Source: an uncultured Candidatus Bathyarchaeia archaeon
GTDB taxonomy: Archaea; Thermoproteota; Bathyarchaeia; Bathyarchaeales; Bathycorpusculaceae
DNA length: 64,000 nt
Reading direction: 5' to 3'
Assembly: GCA_964450845.1 (NCBI GenBank)
Contig: CAYVGZ010000001.1
Coordinates: 84,338-148,337, forward strand
Each line of letters begins with the position of its first letter. Position 1 is the first letter of the stretch. The position numbers and the translations under genes were made by a program. Below are positions 45,971 to 54,001 of this stretch, piece after piece. A model generated the notes under the pieces. That model was not told where the DNA came from. It ran no database searches and saw only the letters and a program-made list of their open reading frames with translations.

Positions 45971-46000
45971 AAAAAGGCCAGTTTAACTGGCCTTCTTCTT
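45971..46000. terminator. Bidirectional intrinsic terminator
   Basis: AAGGCCAGT-TTA-ACTGGCCTT hairpin (45974-45994) with an A-run left and TTCTTCTT right, between convergent genes. Confidence 0.85.
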
Positions 46001-46787
46001 ATAGCTCTGTCGAATTTATCTTCAACATGTATTTTATTTCTTCGAGTGTATGAGGATAGTCTTTTCCTATACCAAATCTTAACTTAACTATGTCTTGGAA
46101 TTTCTGAGGTTTTTTTTCAAGTTCTTTTAGAATATTCATTTCCATTCGTTGGAATACATCGTCTCTATCATCTTCAGAACTAACCTGCTCATTGAACTCG
46201 CTTATAAAACTTTCTTCGAAACCAGAAGAGTTTAAGTCTAATAGTACAACTATGTTATCTATCATACTCTCTGTTAGGCTTATTCCTCGCCGTCCTTTTA
46301 GTGCTGTTGCTAACTCAGATGTAAGAGGTTCTCTTTGAAGTTCAGTATAGAGCTCGCTCTTAACTTCGTTGACGTGCTTCATGTTTCTAGCTATGTCTCT
46401 AGGAGCTCTAACGATCTTGTTCTTCTTTATGAAATCTATTATTCGTTTTCTTACATGAAAAAACGCATGGGTAGTAAAGGATGTTTTAAAGGCTACGTCA
46501 TAGCAATCTATAGCTTCTATTAAGCCTAGGTTAGCTTCTTGAAACAAGTCCATAATGGAAACTTCATCATTTAATACAGTCTTGTATTTCATAACATATT
46601 TCATAGCAAAGCCGCCGTTAGACAATACTAGTTTCTCTCTAATCTTATAATAGAGTTTTGGCTTAGGATTTAGAGAAGCCATAGAAGCCAACTGCGTTAG
46701 TAATGCGTCGTTCTCTTCCCTAGTTGGCCTAGGATATTTGTCTATGTAAGTACTGACAGATCGTCTCAATTCAAAATATTCTTCCAT
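45999..46787 (-). CDS. Phage RNA polymerase sigma-70-family factor
   Basis: Region 2 DLFQEANLGLIEAID.YD....FTTHAFFHVR; IVRAP; region 4 IVKLRFG...TLEEI. Confidence 0.88.
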   Translation of the reverse strand: MEEYFELRRSVSTYIDKYPRPTREENDALLTQLASMASLNPKPKLYYKIREKLVLSNGGFAMKYVMKYKTVLNDEVSIMDLFQEANLGLIEAIDCYDVAFKTSFTTHAFFHVRKRIIDFIKKNKIVRAPRDIARNMKHVNEVKSELYTELQREPLTSELATALKGRRGISLTESMIDNIVVLLDLNSSGFEESFISEFNEQVSSEDDRDDVFQRMEMNILKELEKKPQKFQDIVKLRFGIGKDYPHTLEEIKYMLKINSTEL

Positions 46788-47249
46788 TTATACCTTCTCT
46801 ATGAATGTTGCCTTGCGTCCTGCCCGCTTGAACCTATCTACTAACTTCTGATCGTTGTCTACTAGGTAGTCAACCTTTTCATATATAGATGAGTCTTTGG
46901 TATGGTATCCAACTATCCAATCTGATAGTCTCCAACTTTTGTTAGGATCATTCTTTACGTAGAATCCAACCATTTTTACATCTATCTTTAACTCATCTGC
47001 TATTTCCTTGTATGTCTTCTTGTTTTTATTTCTTAGTTCTATTGCTTTGACATGCAAGTCTTTCTTGTATTCTTCTGGTGTAATTATTAGATTAGTACAA
47101 TACTTCTCTATTTCACGAGGAGTAACTGTCTTGCTCCACAAGTGAATTCTTTTCCCAGCTATTATTAGAAGATCTAATTCCTTGTATAGTGAGTTTGGAT
47201 CGCTTCGTTTTATTATCTCGAAGTCTATAAATACGTTGTATTCTTCCAT
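46788..47249 (-). CDS. Hypothetical protein with HTH-like segment
   Basis: TYKEIADELKIDVKMVGFYV; start at the ATG after AGGA. Confidence 0.55.
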   Translation of the reverse strand: MEEYNVFIDFEIIKRSDPNSLYKELDLLIIAGKRIHLWSKTVTPREIEKYCTNLIITPEEYKKDLHVKAIELRNKNKKTYKEIADELKIDVKMVGFYVKNDPNKSWRLSDWIVGYHTKDSSIYEKVDYLVDNDQKLVDRFKRAGRKATFIEKV

Positions 47250-47336
47250 ACTGTTTTTTCCTGTCAGCTGACTTAAAGCCAGCAATGAAGCCAGCTATAA
47301 AAGTATTTGCAAGGTGCATTTTTACCCCCTAATACA

Positions 47337-47368: not shown

Positions 47369-47899
47369 TTATTCTTGGTGATCTACCCTTAGCGATATTG
47401 CGGAAGGATTCTCAAAAGAATAGTATAACGTAATATCTTTGAGTAAGTCAGGCATTCCTTCTATATAGTTGTTATGCATCATAGTTGTGCTAGATAGCAC
47501 AGTTTCATCAGGTTTGCTTTCATCTATCTGTATATAATTTAGCTTTAACGCTATCTTAGTTAAATCCTCAGTCCCGTAGTTCCAGCTTTTGTCATCTTTT
47601 CTTTTCTGTTTTATTTCTTCAATCTTAGCTTTATCTTTATGAAGATTTTCTATCTTTTTTTCAAGATCTGGCTTTGAATCAATTAGTAAGAATGATTCTT
47701 TCTTTTCTTCTATATCAGATAATCTGTCATTAAGATACTTAAGATTTTTATCTATAAGTTTTATTATGGCTTCTGGCATAAGCCATGGCCAGTGTGAGTT
47801 CTCATGTATTTGATTAAGGACCTCATTAAGAGGTCCCTTGATCGTAATATAATAACTCACACTAGAGCTGTTACTAACAAACCCTAGTCTTATTTTCAT
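47369..47899 (-). CDS. MKIRxGFVSNSSS-motif protein 1 (function unknown)
   Basis: N-terminus MKIRLGFVSNSSSVSY; central coiled coil. Confidence 0.75.
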   Translation of the reverse strand: MKIRLGFVSNSSSVSYYITIKGPLNEVLNQIHENSHWPWLMPEAIIKLIDKNLKYLNDRLSDIEEKKESFLLIDSKPDLEKKIENLHKDKAKIEEIKQKRKDDKSWNYGTEDLTKIALKLNYIQIDESKPDETVLSSTTMMHNNYIEGMPDLLKDITLYYSFENPSAISLRVDHQE

Positions 47900-48105
47900 T
47901 ATACCTTCTTCTCCTCTGCTTCCAGCCTTAGCTTCTCTATCTCTAGAGCCTGAGCCTCGGCCTTAGCTTTAAGTTCTTCAACTACGTTTTCTACGTCCTT
48001 AAGCCTAATGAGTACGTCAGCTGGCTGATCTGATTCTTTTGGACTAGTCAGCTTGCGGACTCTGCACTTTAAAACTTCGTATAGATCAGGTATAAATAAT
48101 TCCAT
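47899..48105 (-). CDS. Small coiled-coil hypothetical protein
   Basis: 68 aa; AAGGAG SD; TAATG coupling. Confidence 0.6.
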   Translation of the reverse strand: MELFIPDLYEVLKCRVRKLTSPKESDQPADVLIRLKDVENVVEELKAKAEAQALEIEKLRLEAEEKKV

Positions 48106-48209
48106 TTCGTAAACTCCTTGTGTATAGTTTGTGTATAGTTATTATATTAGTTGTTATATATAATATAATAGTGCTTATAGAGACATACATCGACCTATAT
48201 AAATCAATC

Positions 48210-48233
48210 ACTTACAATTTCTAAATTGTAAGT
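48210..48233. promoter_or_regulatory. Perfect 11-bp inverted repeat in AT-rich intergenic DNA
   Basis: ACTTACAATTT-CT-AAATTGTAAGT. Confidence 0.55.
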
Positions 48234-48261
48234 TTAATTTATATATATTAATTAAACATAA

Positions 48262-49314
48262 TTATAAACATAATGATACTGTTTCAAACATAGGACAACG
48301 TCTGCATATTGATTTAATATTACATTGACAAAGTGAACAGGAATTTAGTAACTGGTCTCTCCACTGTACTGCTCGTGGATGATTCCAAATGTCCTTTAAA
48401 AACTCGGTATCCTCTTTTATTTCTAGACCTGTTTCCCATTCTCCTATACCCTCCATGAAGGAACATGGAAAGAATTGACCATCAACATTACAGTAGGAAG
48501 AGAAAAGAAACGCCTCACACGGCTCTATGAACTGAGCAAATGTATCGAATTTAGAATGTAGTTCTACTGCTTTAAGGAAGCTTGGGGCACTACATGAATC
48601 AAAGCCAATAGGTATATCGTTGTGCAACGCCTTAGCTACTACTGTTTCGAATTGAATTTTTGATATAGGAGTCATGCCAATCGCTCTACCTCTAGGCTTT
48701 AGCATTAAGAATACAACAGCATTGAGCTTTTCTAATCGAGGGTCTGTTTTTACTTTATCTATTAAGTCTAGACATTCTTGGTAGCTATCATATGATAGCA
48801 CCTGGTGTATATTAACTTGTTCTAAGCCTCTGCTGGTTAGTTCCCTGACGGCATTAAAGCAGACGGCGTCATTATACCTTGAGACCGCGACACTACCACA
48901 GTTGTTTGAAAGGATTGAATAGGTTCTATCATTACATCTGTAACCGTTAATTGTAATGTTGGGAATAATTCCGCTGTCACGAGTTTTCTGAAGTATCTGT
49001 TCGAGCTGCGGATGACCGTCAATGTCACCAATTCCAAACGCAATTTGCGTGAGGTTGTGTGGCATTGTGTTGAGGATAAGATCGAACTTCTCGAGCGGCA
49101 TAAACTTACCTTTTGGTGTATTGGACTTGTAACAGAAGTTACACGGACCCTTCTCTGTTCCGTGACAGATTGTGCTGATCTCAAGATCGAGTATCTCTGG
49201 ACCCAACGGGCTAAAGGAAGGATTGTCATTTTGTGTCTGTCCCCATCTGCTAAAGTATCCATTAACTGTGTCAAAGTCCCAGTTATAATCTTTGCTCCTA
49301 TATGATCTTATCAT
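48262..49314 (-). CDS. Radical SAM protein with SPASM-like C-terminus and CX7CX2C motif
   Basis: CHGTEKGPCNFC, QIAFG, PNITING, VAVS; C-terminal PCE..YC..DG..FPCS...CSLC.C...CRRCP. Confidence 0.82.
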   Translation of the reverse strand: MIRSYRSKDYNWDFDTVNGYFSRWGQTQNDNPSFSPLGPEILDLEISTICHGTEKGPCNFCYKSNTPKGKFMPLEKFDLILNTMPHNLTQIAFGIGDIDGHPQLEQILQKTRDSGIIPNITINGYRCNDRTYSILSNNCGSVAVSRYNDAVCFNAVRELTSRGLEQVNIHQVLSYDSYQECLDLIDKVKTDPRLEKLNAVVFLMLKPRGRAIGMTPISKIQFETVVAKALHNDIPIGFDSCSAPSFLKAVELHSKFDTFAQFIEPCEAFLFSSYCNVDGQFFPCSFMEGIGEWETGLEIKEDTEFLKDIWNHPRAVQWRDQLLNSCSLCQCNIKSICRRCPMFETVSLCL

Positions 49315-49315
49315 T

Positions 49316-49966
49316 TTATCCCCTGAATCTAAGTGGCTTCTTTATAATATACTGCGGTGAATTTTTTACTCGTAATGCTGGGCTTAAGACCATATCTTTG
49401 TTACCAGCTATTTTATAGCACTCAACACAAACAATTTTATTATCTGTGGTTTTTACTATGTCAGCATAATGCTGTTCTTTTAACCAGCAATACGCATAAG
49501 ACAGATCTCGTATCTTATACTGTGGGTTTTCTTTGACAAACTTTTTCCATTCTTTATCAGTAACAGGCTTGCCCATTACCCCTTCTTTTATATACCAGAA
49601 GTAAGTTGATGTCTTTGATATTTCTAGGTCATCATTAAAGAGTACAGAGACGTCTGTTTCAAGCTGAGACCAATCCTGATTATTACACGTTGCTACAAGT
49701 AGCTCTCCAAATTCACTTCTTACTATGTATGTCTCATAGTTAGTAGTAGAAAATACTACAGGAGTGTTAGGATTTTTAAATAGATTTTCTGCTGTTGCTA
49801 GCTTGAATAACTCTCCACCTGGTTCTCTCGAATCAGTCTCCCAGTCAGAGTCTCGTATCTCTAGCATTCTTTTAGCTAAAGCAAAGATTGTTGGTATTCT
49901 TTCATTTGGTATAACTAAAAAGCTAGACGATGAACTGTTTGAAACAAACCCTGTTCTTATTTTCAT
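49316..49966 (-). CDS. MKIRxGFVSNSSS-motif protein 2 (function unknown)
   Basis: N-terminus MKIRTGFVSNSSSSSF; C-terminal C...H...CVEC possible Zn site. Confidence 0.75.
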   Translation of the reverse strand: MKIRTGFVSNSSSSSFLVIPNERIPTIFALAKRMLEIRDSDWETDSREPGGELFKLATAENLFKNPNTPVVFSTTNYETYIVRSEFGELLVATCNNQDWSQLETDVSVLFNDDLEISKTSTYFWYIKEGVMGKPVTDKEWKKFVKENPQYKIRDLSYAYCWLKEQHYADIVKTTDNKIVCVECYKIAGNKDMVLSPALRVKNSPQYIIKKPLRFRG

Positions 49967-50957: not shown

Positions 50958-51542
50958 TCAATGACGGCGAAATGCTATATTATGCGGTACGTTTATTTTA
51001 CAGAGGTTGCATCGTTTGCAGGACCCTGGGCAGATAAGATATCCGTCTGGGACTGGAGCATCTCGTTCAATGACTGTGCAATTGCCATTGTTGCCTTTAG
51101 TACTTCCACTTCCTTTGATAAGGAATCTCGAGTTTGAGAAATCAAGATCTGATCTTGCGGAGTATCCGTAGGTTGTGACCCCAATTGTTGCAAGTCCTTC
51201 AGCAACGAATGATAGCTTGTCGATATCTTGCTGATCATGGAAGTCACCAGACTCATTGTACCTGAGATATCTGGTAGTTTTCCTTCTGCTTTGGATTCGT
51301 TCAGCAATTTCTTGAAGGATTGTCTCTGCTCGTTGATTTCTCCAGTATGTTTCTTGAGCATTTCTGTAAGCTGGGACAGTGTTTGGGTATTGAATTTCTG
51401 CTTTTTCTGCATAGCATCTTATTCCTTTATTTATAACTTCGCATAGGCCAAGTTGCTTTGATGGGCATGTATTTGCTGGACCCATGTTGATAATAGCTGT
51501 ATCATCTCCGAGCTTATGGTTTCCAAATTTAAGTCTAATCAT
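50958..51542 (-). CDS. Phage gp88-like Cys-rich protein
   Basis: GNHKLG, TCPS..LGLC...CYAEK, YLRYNESGDF, CPGSCKRCNLC. Confidence 0.6.
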   Translation of the reverse strand: MIRLKFGNHKLGDDTAIINMGPANTCPSKQLGLCEVINKGIRCYAEKAEIQYPNTVPAYRNAQETYWRNQRAETILQEIAERIQSRRKTTRYLRYNESGDFHDQQDIDKLSFVAEGLATIGVTTYGYSARSDLDFSNSRFLIKGSGSTKGNNGNCTVIERDAPVPDGYLICPGSCKRCNLCKINVPHNIAFRRH

Positions 51543-51562: not shown

Positions 51563-54001
51563 CTAGGAGTGCTCCTCTTCAAGATCCTCTTTAGGGATCG
51601 TGTCTAATTTCTTTGCACTAGTAGGCCTAGAATCAAAGTCGTCTCCGAATAGATTTAGTTGTAAATTTTTTTTTATTCCAAACTTATCTAGTGCTTTCAA
51701 AACCAAGTCCTCATAGTAATTAAGGTCTAGTTGCGATATATCGTCGACCCATTTAACGAATGTATAATTCTTTCCATTGATTTTATAATACGGTTTTAGT
51801 TCTGGAAATGGTAATGGTTTCTTTGTTACTACATAATTGATCTGGGTACCTTGTGTGGCAACCTGCCCAGTTTTCATTTCCATTTGTTTACCAAGGAATA
51901 ATCTCATGTCATACGCGTCATCATATTCTCTTGGTTCCTTTGAAAGCTTAACGCGTTCTTCAAAGTCTTCCAGCTTTGCATTCTTAAAGTCTAAGGATTT
52001 CTGTAATACTTCATCCTTTGGCAAGCCATTGAATACATGTTGTATAGCTAGCTGTATTGCTCGGTCTACTATGTGTGCTGCACGAGATGCTTTAAATGAT
52101 GAACCATGTATTAGATACTTTCCATTCTCTTCAACTACATAGTTTTTCATAGCATAGAAGTAAGCTCTGCCAAAGTCATCTAACTCCATTTGCATGTAGT
52201 TATCTTTGATTCCAAACTTAGATTCTATTAGCTTGTCTAGCCATGTATTAATCTCTTTTTCTGATACTTCTTTATCTAGGATTAATCCATCTGTATCTAA
52301 CTCTATTAGATTATCTCGTAGTTTTCTAATTACATTTCCAGTAGTCCATCTGCACATAGCAGTAACCATTACTGCAGACATCATGTCTCCATAGGTACTA
52401 CTCTTAAGCCCCAAGATTCCGTATATTGAGTTGAGGATAACCTTGATGGCGTACTGTTGAGAATCCAGCGCGGGTCGCTCCGATTCTGTAGCGGTCTTAA
52501 GCTGCTTTTTAATCTTAACACGCTCAGCACGAAGCTTCGATATTTCTGTCTTGAGTACACCTTCGACGTCGTTCCTGACCTTAATAAGGATATCACACCG
52601 AAAGTTAGCATCTGGAATCCTATACCAGTTGTATTTCGAGTCTTTCTTGAATGTGTATTTACCAGTGTACGGAAGCTTCTTGACGAAAGATGTGGTATCT
52701 GGCCCGAGGTTCCAAGTTTGGATGCTGCTGGGATACATGCTGGAAAAGTCCAGTTTATAGACTTGAGGGAAATAACCATCTTTATATAGTCCTACTAATG
52801 CTCCTTCATACTTCGTTCCAATTTCTGCTATAGACCCATTGCTGGCATTGTATCTTTGAAAGTTGCTATCTGTAGCAATAAGACCTTTCTTTTCCATGTT
52901 TCGGGCTAGGAATAACTTTGGTACGAAGCTGGAGTACATTGTTATAATGCTATTGAGTGGAACACTTAGCATCTCTGCTAGAGTTATACAGTTTCTCATG
53001 TAGACATGGCCAACCCACTCGGTTCTGTATATGTCATCATCTAAGTATGAGTAGAGTTTATCTGAGTCCTTCTTGTATAAGTCCACTAGATTTTCTACGT
53101 GGTCTTTTACTTCTATATCTTCTAATGCTTCTTCTCTCCATATTCCATTTATTATTTCAGTTCGCTTTGCTTTATAGAACCTAGCAATTTCTTTTAGAGA
53201 CCTAGATTTGATACCAAACAGAGTTTGGTCTTTGGATACTCCAGCATTGGAATTATATATATCAAAATGTATTCTTCCAGGAATTCTTAACTGGTCTTCA
53301 ATGAAATATGGTGCCTTGTGTTGGCGACCAATCCCTTTCATACTTATATCTAGTAGCTTACACCTATCCATGATATATGGAAAGTCGAAATCTAGCGAGT
53401 TATACCCAGCTACAATGTCTGGATCGTTCTTCTCTACATCATCTATAAATTCAAGCAGTATCTTTTTGTCACCGTCAGTGCTTTGTCCAATACTTGTTCC
53501 TTTCAAATCAAATCCTTTTATGATCTTATGTTTGAGCTTTTCTTTTGTACCATTGTTCTTATAAATCCAAATACTATATCCTATACATAAGATTTCATTT
53601 GATATTGACTTAGGAAAGAATCCATCACCCTTTGTTGCTACTTCTATATCAAAGAACATTATCTTTAGATCATTTGTATGAGGAAAGCCAAGAAGATAAT
53701 CTGGCCTAGATATATACAGCTGTTCGATAAAGCTATTAGCTTGTATAAACCGTTGTCTATCTAAGCTTCTCTTTCTAAATTCTGTATATCCTTCTAGGTC
53801 TGGGAACTGAAGTCTAAGATATTCTCTTTCTTCATATTCTGGAACCTTAATCCACTTTTCTACTGGCGATTGAACGTCAGGAAACATGTCTTTTTGTGCT
53901 AAGACAAATGGTTTCATTGGGTGTTGGACCCGCTGTTCTAATCCATTTGCATATATAACTAATTCATCATTTGTTGGTATTACCGATAAAGGTATTTTCA
54001 T
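51563..54001 (-). CDS. Family B DNA polymerase
   Basis: Exonuclease FDIEV, GYNSLDFDF, Y...D; polymerase DFSSMYPS, KVILNSIYG, ELDTDG, KNY. Confidence 0.95.
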   Translation of the reverse strand: MKIPLSVIPTNDELVIYANGLEQRVQHPMKPFVLAQKDMFPDVQSPVEKWIKVPEYEEREYLRLQFPDLEGYTEFRKRSLDRQRFIQANSFIEQLYISRPDYLLGFPHTNDLKIMFFDIEVATKGDGFFPKSISNEILCIGYSIWIYKNNGTKEKLKHKIIKGFDLKGTSIGQSTDGDKKILLEFIDDVEKNDPDIVAGYNSLDFDFPYIMDRCKLLDISMKGIGRQHKAPYFIEDQLRIPGRIHFDIYNSNAGVSKDQTLFGIKSRSLKEIARFYKAKRTEIINGIWREEALEDIEVKDHVENLVDLYKKDSDKLYSYLDDDIYRTEWVGHVYMRNCITLAEMLSVPLNSIITMYSSFVPKLFLARNMEKKGLIATDSNFQRYNASNGSIAEIGTKYEGALVGLYKDGYFPQVYKLDFSSMYPSSIQTWNLGPDTTSFVKKLPYTGKYTFKKDSKYNWYRIPDANFRCDILIKVRNDVEGVLKTEISKLRAERVKIKKQLKTATESERPALDSQQYAIKVILNSIYGILGLKSSTYGDMMSAVMVTAMCRWTTGNVIRKLRDNLIELDTDGLILDKEVSEKEINTWLDKLIESKFGIKDNYMQMELDDFGRAYFYAMKNYVVEENGKYLIHGSSFKASRAAHIVDRAIQLAIQHVFNGLPKDEVLQKSLDFKNAKLEDFEERVKLSKEPREYDDAYDMRLFLGKQMEMKTGQVATQGTQINYVVTKKPLPFPELKPYYKINGKNYTFVKWVDDISQLDLNYYEDLVLKALDKFGIKKNLQLNLFGDDFDSRPTSAKKLDTIPKEDLEEEHS

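Follow-up and report, generated by a model that had tools for sequence, protein, structure and literature searches.

A radical-SAM enzyme and an invariant N-terminal tag on otherwise unrelated viral proteins point to a previously undescribed maturase-substrate system

RESULTS

A radical-SAM gene between two genes that share only their start

The window, the whole stretch of DNA analysed here (64,000 nucleotides; contig CAYVGZ010000001.1, positions 84,338 to 148,337), is part of a large uncultured phage contig of 196.6 kb and carries a radical S-adenosylmethionine (SAM) enzyme gene between two genes whose products begin with the same short peptide, termed the tag. In the list of open reading frames (ORFs), the first tagged protein, client 1 (216 amino acids [aa]; 49316-49966, minus strand; family of 20), begins MKIRTGFVSNSSSSSF, and the second, client 2 (176 aa; 47369-47899, minus strand; family of 8), begins MKIRLGFVSNSSSVSY. 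Their common start is a 16-residue stretch, M-K-I-R-x-G-F-V-S-N-S-S-S-x-S-[FY], in which x at position 5 is T or L; it occupies 49919-49966 (minus strand) in client 1, as defined from ORF starts, codon comparison, and a motif control, and 47852-47899 (minus strand) in client 2, as defined from the ORF start and codon comparison. The 350-aa ORF between both tagged genes (48262-49314, minus strand) encodes a radical-SAM enzyme with a SPASM/twitch-like C-terminal domain, a putative maturase by its match to phrog_7293 and its predicted structure, and its ATG lies 1 nt past the stop of client 1 (TAA A ATG). A 68-aa ORF (47899-48105, minus strand), the stop of which overlaps the start of client 2 (TAATG), separates the enzyme from client 2; it belongs to no Pfam or PHROGs family and to no conserved cluster among the compared loci. 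The enzyme and tagged genes are co-directional and tightly packed within the replication module. No third ORF starting with the tag was found in the 64-kb window or in the entire 1.6-Mb assembly, and the window version of the system is minimal, with one enzyme and two clients.

This arrangement had been described in a reading of the DNA made without database searches (the sequence-only reading), namely, two ORFs with a common start and nothing in common afterward, and a radical-SAM gene starting 1 nt past the stop of one of them. The ORF list and the TAA A ATG junction agree with that description, and profile-profile comparison of the client 1 family with the client 2 family yielded an alignment confined to residues 1-20. 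The term "paralogues" used for the two proteins was nevertheless an overstatement, because homology is demonstrable for the 16-20-residue tag only.

Selection acts on the tag as a peptide

The tag pattern matched 428 times in the real loci, compared with 0 matches in 2.19 Mb of reversed control sequence. The two window copies differ at synonymous sites and draw their serines from different codon boxes (TCA versus AGT), and among 322 distinct tagged genes, all six serine codons were seen at every serine position; therefore, selection acts on the tag peptide rather than on the DNA. This codon variation also ruled out a recent DNA duplication or a nucleotide-level element, and upstream there was only an ordinary purine-rich ribosome-binding site. 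Across 344 distinct proteins, the residues were M (94%), K (93%), [I/V/T], R (96%), x, G, F (99%), V (95%), S, N (100%), S, S, S (91%), [S/T/A], S (95%), and F (93%) or Y, followed by two hydrophobic residues, with S9, N10, S11, and S12 fully invariant. The consensus of the proposed system is M-K-I/V-R-x-G-F-V-S-N-S-S-S-S/T-S-F/Y.

A profile of the first 34 residues retrieved 24,592 cluster representatives (E<=1e-3, among 1.84 billion), and the tag lay at residue 1 in 143 of the 150 best matches, the remainder being mostly in-frame tandem fusions. Several database proteins (P0031-P0037) are such fusions of two tagged proteins, in which the second tag still has its Met start; they may be genuine fusions, or may reflect the loss of a stop or gene calling with a recoded stop codon. 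The ESM Atlas gave unnamed viral clusters only. The AlphaFold2 (AF2) model of client 1 has a predicted local distance difference test score (pLDDT) of 78, and tag residues 1-11 are its sole N-terminal part with pLDDT <50, yet the best conserved one, a prediction that fits an exposed linear motif.

The tag heads mostly unrelated, mostly acidic proteins

IMG/VR loci fetched with either client family contained same-strand tandem arrays of up to 14 tag-headed genes. Median length is 127 aa across the 344 distinct tagged proteins, and the longest clients reach 434 aa, with folded domains. Their tails, the parts beyond the tag, are mostly acidic (median pI 4.6, 87% below 5.5), the two window clients being less so, and mostly unrelated: 337 tails fell into 99 clusters, and tail similarity was detected in only 29 of 776 within-array pairs. 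Pfam searches with 126 diverse tagged proteins gave single cases only of leucine-rich repeats (LRR), STAS-like DUF4325, DUF6745, and a zinc ribbon. Apart from these, scans of the tagged proteins against Pfam, PHROGs, NCBIfam, and PADLOC recovered only phrog_7397, which is the client family of T4-like phages itself. The tag is thus portable, heading mostly unrelated proteins. Two of the larger clients adjoin the enzyme in contigs binned as cellular organisms, a 423-aa tagged protein with leucine-rich repeats in a Promethearchaeota bin (L138:2640-3908) and a 434-aa tagged protein with DUF6745 in a Planctomycetales bin (L155:10001-11302).

Beyond its tag, client 1 has an alpha/beta domain with conserved NY[ED]TYI and TCNN motifs and a C-terminal CxxC zinc-ribbon-like end; the tag, T79, T93, and N96 are invariant and C180/C183 near-invariant within the family (n=20). 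Foldseek comparison of this fold with PDB and BFVD returned nothing at E<=1e-3, and the VIA-wide comparison gave generic ferredoxin/RRM-like matches only (Z ~5). A client 1 type protein as a universal core component was ruled out by its presence in about one of the enzyme-anchored loci. In client 2, the tag is followed by a helical region and a conserved T-x-M-H-N-N-Y motif (family n=8). A second motif, T-x-M-[DH]-N, is present in just 31 of 344 tagged proteins. We also considered whether the tag could form the first strand and the catalytic loop of a single conserved enzyme fold, an idea ruled out by the alignment of residues 1-20 only and by the 99 tail clusters, and likewise countered by the scarcity of T-x-M-[DH]-N and by the low pLDDT of tag residues 1-11.

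The enzyme resembles peptide-modifying SPASM/twitch maturases

The window enzyme matched the unannotated family phrog_7293 (E 4e-86). Its Pfam Radical_SAM score lies below the gathering cut-off (22.1 versus 29.5), whereas a bacterial homologue with 29% identity scores above it (51.5). The radical-SAM cluster motif, C50-x7-C58-x2-C61 (49132-49167, minus strand), contains three cysteines that are invariant in 18 aligned homologues, as expected of a radical-SAM cluster, and 173 PDB radical-SAM chains matched the enzyme model at Foldseek E<=1e-3, in keeping with a partial TIM-barrel core. The CX7CX2C spacing that the sequence-only reading called atypical is present in the window enzyme; however, it is a loop insertion shared by a minority of homologues, because the majority have the canonical CX3CX2C.

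The same reading also noted a SPASM-like tail. Pfam SPASM matched the window enzyme weakly (17.3 versus a cut-off of 21.5; E 0.006) and passed in a homologue (30.9), NCBIfam twitch and SPASM domains matched homologues below or near cut-off, and the predicted fold is closest to SPASM/twitch maturases. The canonical SPASM domain has a seven-cysteine motif and two auxiliary clusters, and the twitch domain has one cluster. The C-terminal domain here, by comparison, has just four invariant cysteines in the same 18 homologues, C241, C266, C284, and C340 (auxiliary-cluster region, 48295-48594, minus strand), enough for one auxiliary cluster and fewer than in canonical SPASM.

The AF2 model of the enzyme (pLDDT 89.5) aligned best with SuiB (5v1t; Z 24.4, root-mean-square deviation 3.4, 314 residues aligned from residue 1), followed by SkfB (6efn; Z 22.8), also from residue 1. 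CteB and anSME (Z 19.7), together with ChlB and PqqE, spanned Z 18.5-19.7, and viperins (~Z 18) and PFL-AE (Z 13) came lower, such that the predicted fold is nearest to peptide-modifying SPASM/twitch maturases. No curated family claimed the enzyme, all NCBIfam matches being far below cut-off; for the bacterial homologue, the top partial matches (among the best 25 of 39) were the peptide maturases MftC, WgkB, GeoRSP, ScmE, PqqE, and KxxxW maturase. In PADLOC, the enzyme matched only the pVip core, and weakly. An N-terminal extension specific to the family, approximately 45 residues long (residues 1-45; 49180-49314, minus strand) and delimited from the alignment and the AF2 model, has predicted strands at 2-5, 11-15, and 21-24 and invariant F14, G19, G25, P39, D43, and E45, and it is conserved in the bacterial homologue at 29% identity; this extension is a candidate tag-binding element.

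In four phage contigs (L007:7204-9553, also L012, L014, and L037/L041), the radical-SAM gene is split into three ORFs directly past the cluster motif. The first codes for an N-terminal piece that runs into a HINT/intein N-part at its end (Pfam PT-HINT, Intein_splicing), the second for a free-standing protein of ~294-345 aa with no family, and the third for a C-terminal piece with an intein-C-like beginning that bears the SPASM domain. The arrangement looks like a split-intein "fractured gene".

Tag and enzyme occur together across viruses

A single-protein locus search with the enzyme returned nothing, and its relatives were recovered by profile. An enzyme profile built from 18 homologues found 187 relatives in IMG/VR, of which the best 80 loci were analysed within a 10-kb neighbourhood. 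Tagged ORFs lay <=10 kb from the enzyme in 70 of these 80 enzyme-anchored loci; 267 of the 268 tagged ORFs were on the same strand as the enzyme and 219 were downstream of it, with a median nearest gap of 350 bp. Five of the ten remaining loci were examined contig-wide, and all five hold 1-12 tagged genes elsewhere. In the reverse direction, an enzyme homologue (37-45% identity) occurred <=10 kb away in 23 of 41 tag-anchored loci, a contig-wide search placed the enzyme farther off in five more tag-anchored contigs, and two more loci share a contig with enzyme-anchored loci. The tag-anchored contigs in which the enzyme was missing are fragments estimated to be 6-45% complete. Thus, the co-occurrence of motif and radical-SAM subfamily suggested as a check in the sequence-only reading was strongly positive in both directions, and the contrary outcome that it had named, motif proteins commonly found without the enzyme, did not emerge.

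Near the tagged genes of the tag-anchored loci, the enzyme is the sole conserved non-tag gene, and across loci no glycosyltransferase, kinase, protease, or transporter appeared as a conserved partner. The tag remains unchanged even though the enzyme diverges to 28-29% identity. In the T4-like phages of the RB43/RB16/KP15/GAP161 group, the enzyme (173 records) accompanies the tagged family phrog_7397 (175 records), and the T4-like cultured phage Lw1 also has both; the cultured Escherichia coli phages RB43, RB16, and Lw1 each carry one enzyme and two clients. Hundreds of phages carry tag and enzyme jointly, cultured phages of E. coli and Klebsiella among them. The window locus (blastn) and client 1 (tblastn) themselves matched no cultured phage. 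In T4-like phages, as seen in Cronobacter phage GAP161 (66014-70428; L044:1515-5929), a 748-aa gene and three small genes sit between the two tagged genes.

A bacterial STAND operon contains the same pair

The tag was also found in contigs of metagenome-assembled genomes (MAGs) assigned to many bacterial and archaeal phyla, with the enzyme in 25 of 44 such loci; some of these contigs may be mis-binned viruses. Many tagged genes and the enzyme are present on contigs (60 and 249 kb) assigned to a single Nanoarchaeota MAG (L128, L131, L145, L148, L161); these may come from a large virus that was mis-binned or from an archaeal virus.

A chromosomal, immune-type operon of four genes, present in Acidobacteriota and Verrucomicrobiota, codes for a SMEK-NACHT STAND NTPase, a 128-aa protein, a 137-aa tagged protein, and an enzyme homologue 28-29% identical to the window enzyme and aligned end to end (L125:6736-11502, also L126, L127, L129, L132, L136, and L137). 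Its genes overlap or lie 3 nt apart. The tagged and enzyme genes, and the 128-aa gene where the contig extends, recur in seven loci of two phyla, with a STAND match in six of the seven. The STAND NTPase has partial Avs2/SMEK matches and, the weak pVip core matches of the enzyme aside, is the only operon component with a defence-profile match. Integrases and an ArdC-N gene border the operon in L125. Five bacterial genomes (3.4-9.1 Mb) have exactly one tagged gene each, next to the enzyme, and the operon is rare, with the query genome being the only positive among 201 sampled genomes of its phylum. The occurrence of the pair in an Avs2-like STAND operon suggests that it takes part in conflict between phage and host.

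DISCUSSION

A two-part system with one maturase and many clients

The reading we favour, and consider somewhat more probable than all others together, is a two-part system in which one radical-SAM maturase of the SPASM/twitch kind serves many clients that bear the invariant N-terminal 16-residue tag. In such a system, a single enzyme would recognise, and probably also modify chemically, the tag that thousands of different proteins have in common. Since the tails share nothing, the tag is most parsimoniously also the target of the enzyme. The proposal in the sequence-only reading that the Ser-rich motif may be a recognition or modification site is supported, as far as computation goes, by the two-way co-occurrence, by the enzyme being the sole conserved non-tag neighbour, and by its predicted maturase-like fold. 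Together, these observations point to a previously undescribed system of the radical-SAM maturase-substrate kind. Our literature search found no publication describing the tag, its motif strings, or the tag-enzyme pairing, in line with the statement in the sequence-only reading that no characterisation of the motif was known, and nothing relevant was found on phage systems of radical-SAM enzymes or of ribosomally made, post-translationally modified peptides (RiPPs) or on the KP15/RB43 group.

In the proposed mechanism, the flexible tag would serve as the handle for the enzyme. It may dock via beta-strand pairing on the family-specific N-terminal sheet, which would put the invariant F-V-S-N-S-S stretch at the SAM cluster, where the 5'-deoxyadenosyl radical would then abstract a hydrogen from the tag. 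The product could be a side-chain cross-link, such as a three-residue Phe-to-Ser cyclophane as reported for FxsB on F-x-S-x-x peptides, or alternatively an oxidised serine, as for anSME. Each client would owe a target of its own to its variable tail, plausibly for host takeover or anti-defence.

Several points weigh against this reading. Which residue is modified, and into what, is guesswork, the F-x-S likeness spans three residues of a serine-rich peptide and could be coincidence, and FxsB was not among the listed NCBIfam matches (best 25 of 39 for the bacterial homologue). The clients are proteins of 80-430 aa rather than short peptides, and in the loci compared there was neither a conserved protease or transporter nearby nor a RiPP recognition element (RRE) detectable in sequence with Pfam. 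The C-terminal domain of the enzyme has four invariant cysteines, compared with seven in canonical SPASM. The co-occurrence counts draw partly on related phages and are phylogenetically non-independent, the T4-like phages have their tagged genes ~20 kb from the enzyme, and the low pLDDT of the tag in the AF2 model is compatible with an exposed handle but is no proof of it.

A more specific version, in which a novel radical modification of the universal tag (e.g., a Phe-Ser/Asn cross-link or an oxidised serine) is needed for the function of a very large, fast-evolving and acidic arsenal of phage early proteins and the Avs2-like STAND operon uses the same pair, is put forward tentatively and appears rather doubtful as a whole. 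In that version, the acidic early proteins would probably be host-takeover or anti-defence effectors, and the system would be the equivalent of RiPP maturation at the level of proteins and across viruses.

Alternative roles of the tag

Docking without modification, a small-molecule product, and an enzyme-independent address or degron are each less likely than a maturase that acts on the tag. The best surviving alternative holds that the tag is a leader or docking handle only and stays chemically unchanged, the enzyme altering a residue in the variable tail or holding or chaperoning the clients. An invariant N-terminal part with a hypervariable remainder follows the leader/core logic of RiPPs, in which one maturase serves many precursors, and some subfamilies have Cys or Tyr, typical radical cross-link partners, right past the tag (e.g., ...SSSFCIYG and ...SSSYICDxCG). 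Yet, because the tails share no motif, being divided among 99 clusters with T-x-M-[DH]-N in only 31 of 344 proteins, one active site would have no common target outside the tag, and the full invariance of S9, N10, S11, and S12 exceeds the usual need of docking. This alternative is therefore judged improbable.

A second possibility is that the clients are partners rather than substrates, and that the enzyme makes a small molecule, such as a viperin-like nucleotide or a cofactor, that the Ser-rich tag binds or carries covalently. The resemblance of the enzyme model to viperins (Z ~18), the weak pVip matches in PADLOC, and the frequent role of Ser-rich loops in phosphate binding speak for it. Peptide maturases, however, score clearly higher (Z 24.4 and 22.8), and their alignment covers the entire chain, N-terminal extension and auxiliary-cluster domain included, which are absent from viperins; no conserved nucleotide-metabolism gene lies near the tagged genes, and a role as ligand binders sits poorly with arrays of as many as 14 unrelated clients. 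We give this possibility little credence.

About equally unlikely is an address or turnover signal independent of the enzyme (capsid packaging, degron, or localisation), with the co-occurrence arising from shared ancestry or regulation: the unrelated internal proteins of T4 do share a short N-terminal targeting peptide, the tail of the tagged GAP161_106 weakly matches phrog_132 "head-tail adaptor" (E 9e-10), and ~20 kb separate tagged genes from enzyme in T4-like phages, but the pairing persists to 28% enzyme identity across unrelated phage genome types and archaea-binned contigs, the tag has no L-x-E type protease site, and the bacterial operon has exactly one tagged gene beside the enzyme, where a phage packaging signal has no role.

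Comparison with known systems

The closest structural parallels to the tag-modifying system proposed here are SuiB/StrB with SuiA/StrA (streptide; SuiB/StrB is a radical-SAM/SPASM Lys-Trp cyclase) and SkfB (a twitch sactisynthase). As predicted for the window enzyme, a radical-SAM core is followed by a C-terminal auxiliary Fe-S domain, and SuiB and SkfB act on a ribosomal peptide encoded next door, just as the window enzyme adjoins tagged genes. In contrast, the window enzyme shares 13-17% identity with them and matches no curated family, its candidate substrates are N-terminal tags on proteins of 80-430 aa with up to 14 per genome, the tag has neither Trp nor Cys, and no conserved protease or exporter and no sequence-detectable RRE accompany it. 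The window yielded no RRE or PqqD Pfam match; the structural alignment does reach the N-terminus of SuiB, which is not diagnostic of an RRE.

The anSME/AtsB enzymes, paired with sulfatases, are radical-SAM/SPASM proteins that modify a short Ser/Cys motif in full-length proteins with many paralogous clients, and anSME resembles the enzyme model with Z 19.7. anSME has two auxiliary clusters. In contrast to its target, the tag lacks (C/S)-x-P-x-R, with no Pro or Arg in register, and is strictly N-terminal. Membership in the anSME-sulfatase system was rejected, the motif and a sulfatase-fold client both being missing; Pfam found a sulfatase domain in 0 of the 126 diverse tagged proteins.

Prochlorosins with ProcM exemplify one maturase with many leader-sharing precursors. 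The likeness lies in a single enzyme gene and gene arrays with an invariant N-terminal segment and a hypervariable remainder, whereas here only 16 residues are conserved, folded domains (LRR, zinc ribbon, alpha/beta) make up the remainders, and the system is viral. Assignment to RiPP maturase systems, in which an RRE binds the leader of a short precursor peptide and a protease cuts it off, was likewise rejected: the median client is 127 aa long, the loci share no conserved protease or transporter, and no RRE/PqqD Pfam match was found.

The T4 capsid-targeting sequence is a short N-terminal peptide common to unrelated, fast-evolving internal proteins, and the tag resembles it in this placement on unrelated, fast-evolving phage proteins. 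The tag differs in lacking a prohead-protease site, in being strictly coupled to a radical-SAM enzyme, and in occurring also in a chromosomal bacterial operon; neither this targeting sequence nor intein-like N|S cleavage fits. A glycyl-radical enzyme with its activase was excluded too, R-V-x-G-[FWY] being expected near the C-terminus of a barrel enzyme and the [IV]-R-x-G-F of the tag being N-terminal on small proteins; the activase of such a pair has no auxiliary-cluster domain, and the enzyme here has a C-terminal Cys-rich domain and matches PFL-AE with only Z 13. Among known defence systems (PADLOC) and NCBIfam, tagged proteins had no match, and the STAND neighbour had partial Avs2/SMEK matches only.

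FxsB has been reported to form cyclophanes on an F-x-S-x-x peptide as a "triceptide" maturase (PMC10114670), and FxSxx-COOH peptides with a radical-SAM/SPASM enzyme have been linked to STAND NTPases in conflict systems (PMC7159879). These precursors diverge rapidly around a short F-x-S-x-x motif, and the tag holds F-V-S-N-S; both are paired with a radical-SAM/SPASM enzyme and both are STAND NTPase-associated in bacteria. The FxSxx motif, however, is found at the extreme C-terminus, and a metallopeptidase releases it, whereas F-V-S-N-S is at residues 7-11 with no conserved peptidase, and the STAND partner is SMEK-NACHT (Avs2-like) here and TIR-AP-ATPase there. With the motif N-terminal, FxsB not among the listed NCBIfam matches, and no peptidase conserved, we did not assign the system to FxSxx-COOH/FxsB. 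FxsB being no close relative and its motif being C-terminal, the parallel is a chemical lead only.

Implications

Radical-SAM/SPASM enzymes are known for the maturation of short peptides and of a few families of enzymes. The association described here ties an enzyme of this kind to an invariant tag on approximately 24,600 clusters of otherwise unrelated viral proteins, none of them named in Pfam, NCBIfam, or PADLOC. Should the tag prove to be modified, few unstudied post-translational systems of phages would be as widespread. It would then give a first handle on thousands of "hypothetical" early genes, could expose new radical chemistry on Ser, Asn, or Phe, and would supply a tag, short and portable, for directing enzymes to modify proteins. 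Direct tests are within reach, as the cultured E. coli phages RB43, RB16, and Lw1 carry the system.

Genes next to the system in the window

Between the tagged-gene run and a family-B DNA polymerase gene (51563-54001) lies a gene for a 194-aa Cys-rich protein (50958-51542, minus strand) with a Pfam GP88 match (E 2e-8). Directly downstream of the system (45999-47285, minus strand), a sigma-factor-like 262-aa gene stands next to a 165-aa gene, and this pair is kept together in one other tag-bearing contig (L006:3364-4458), with 39% and 32% identity.

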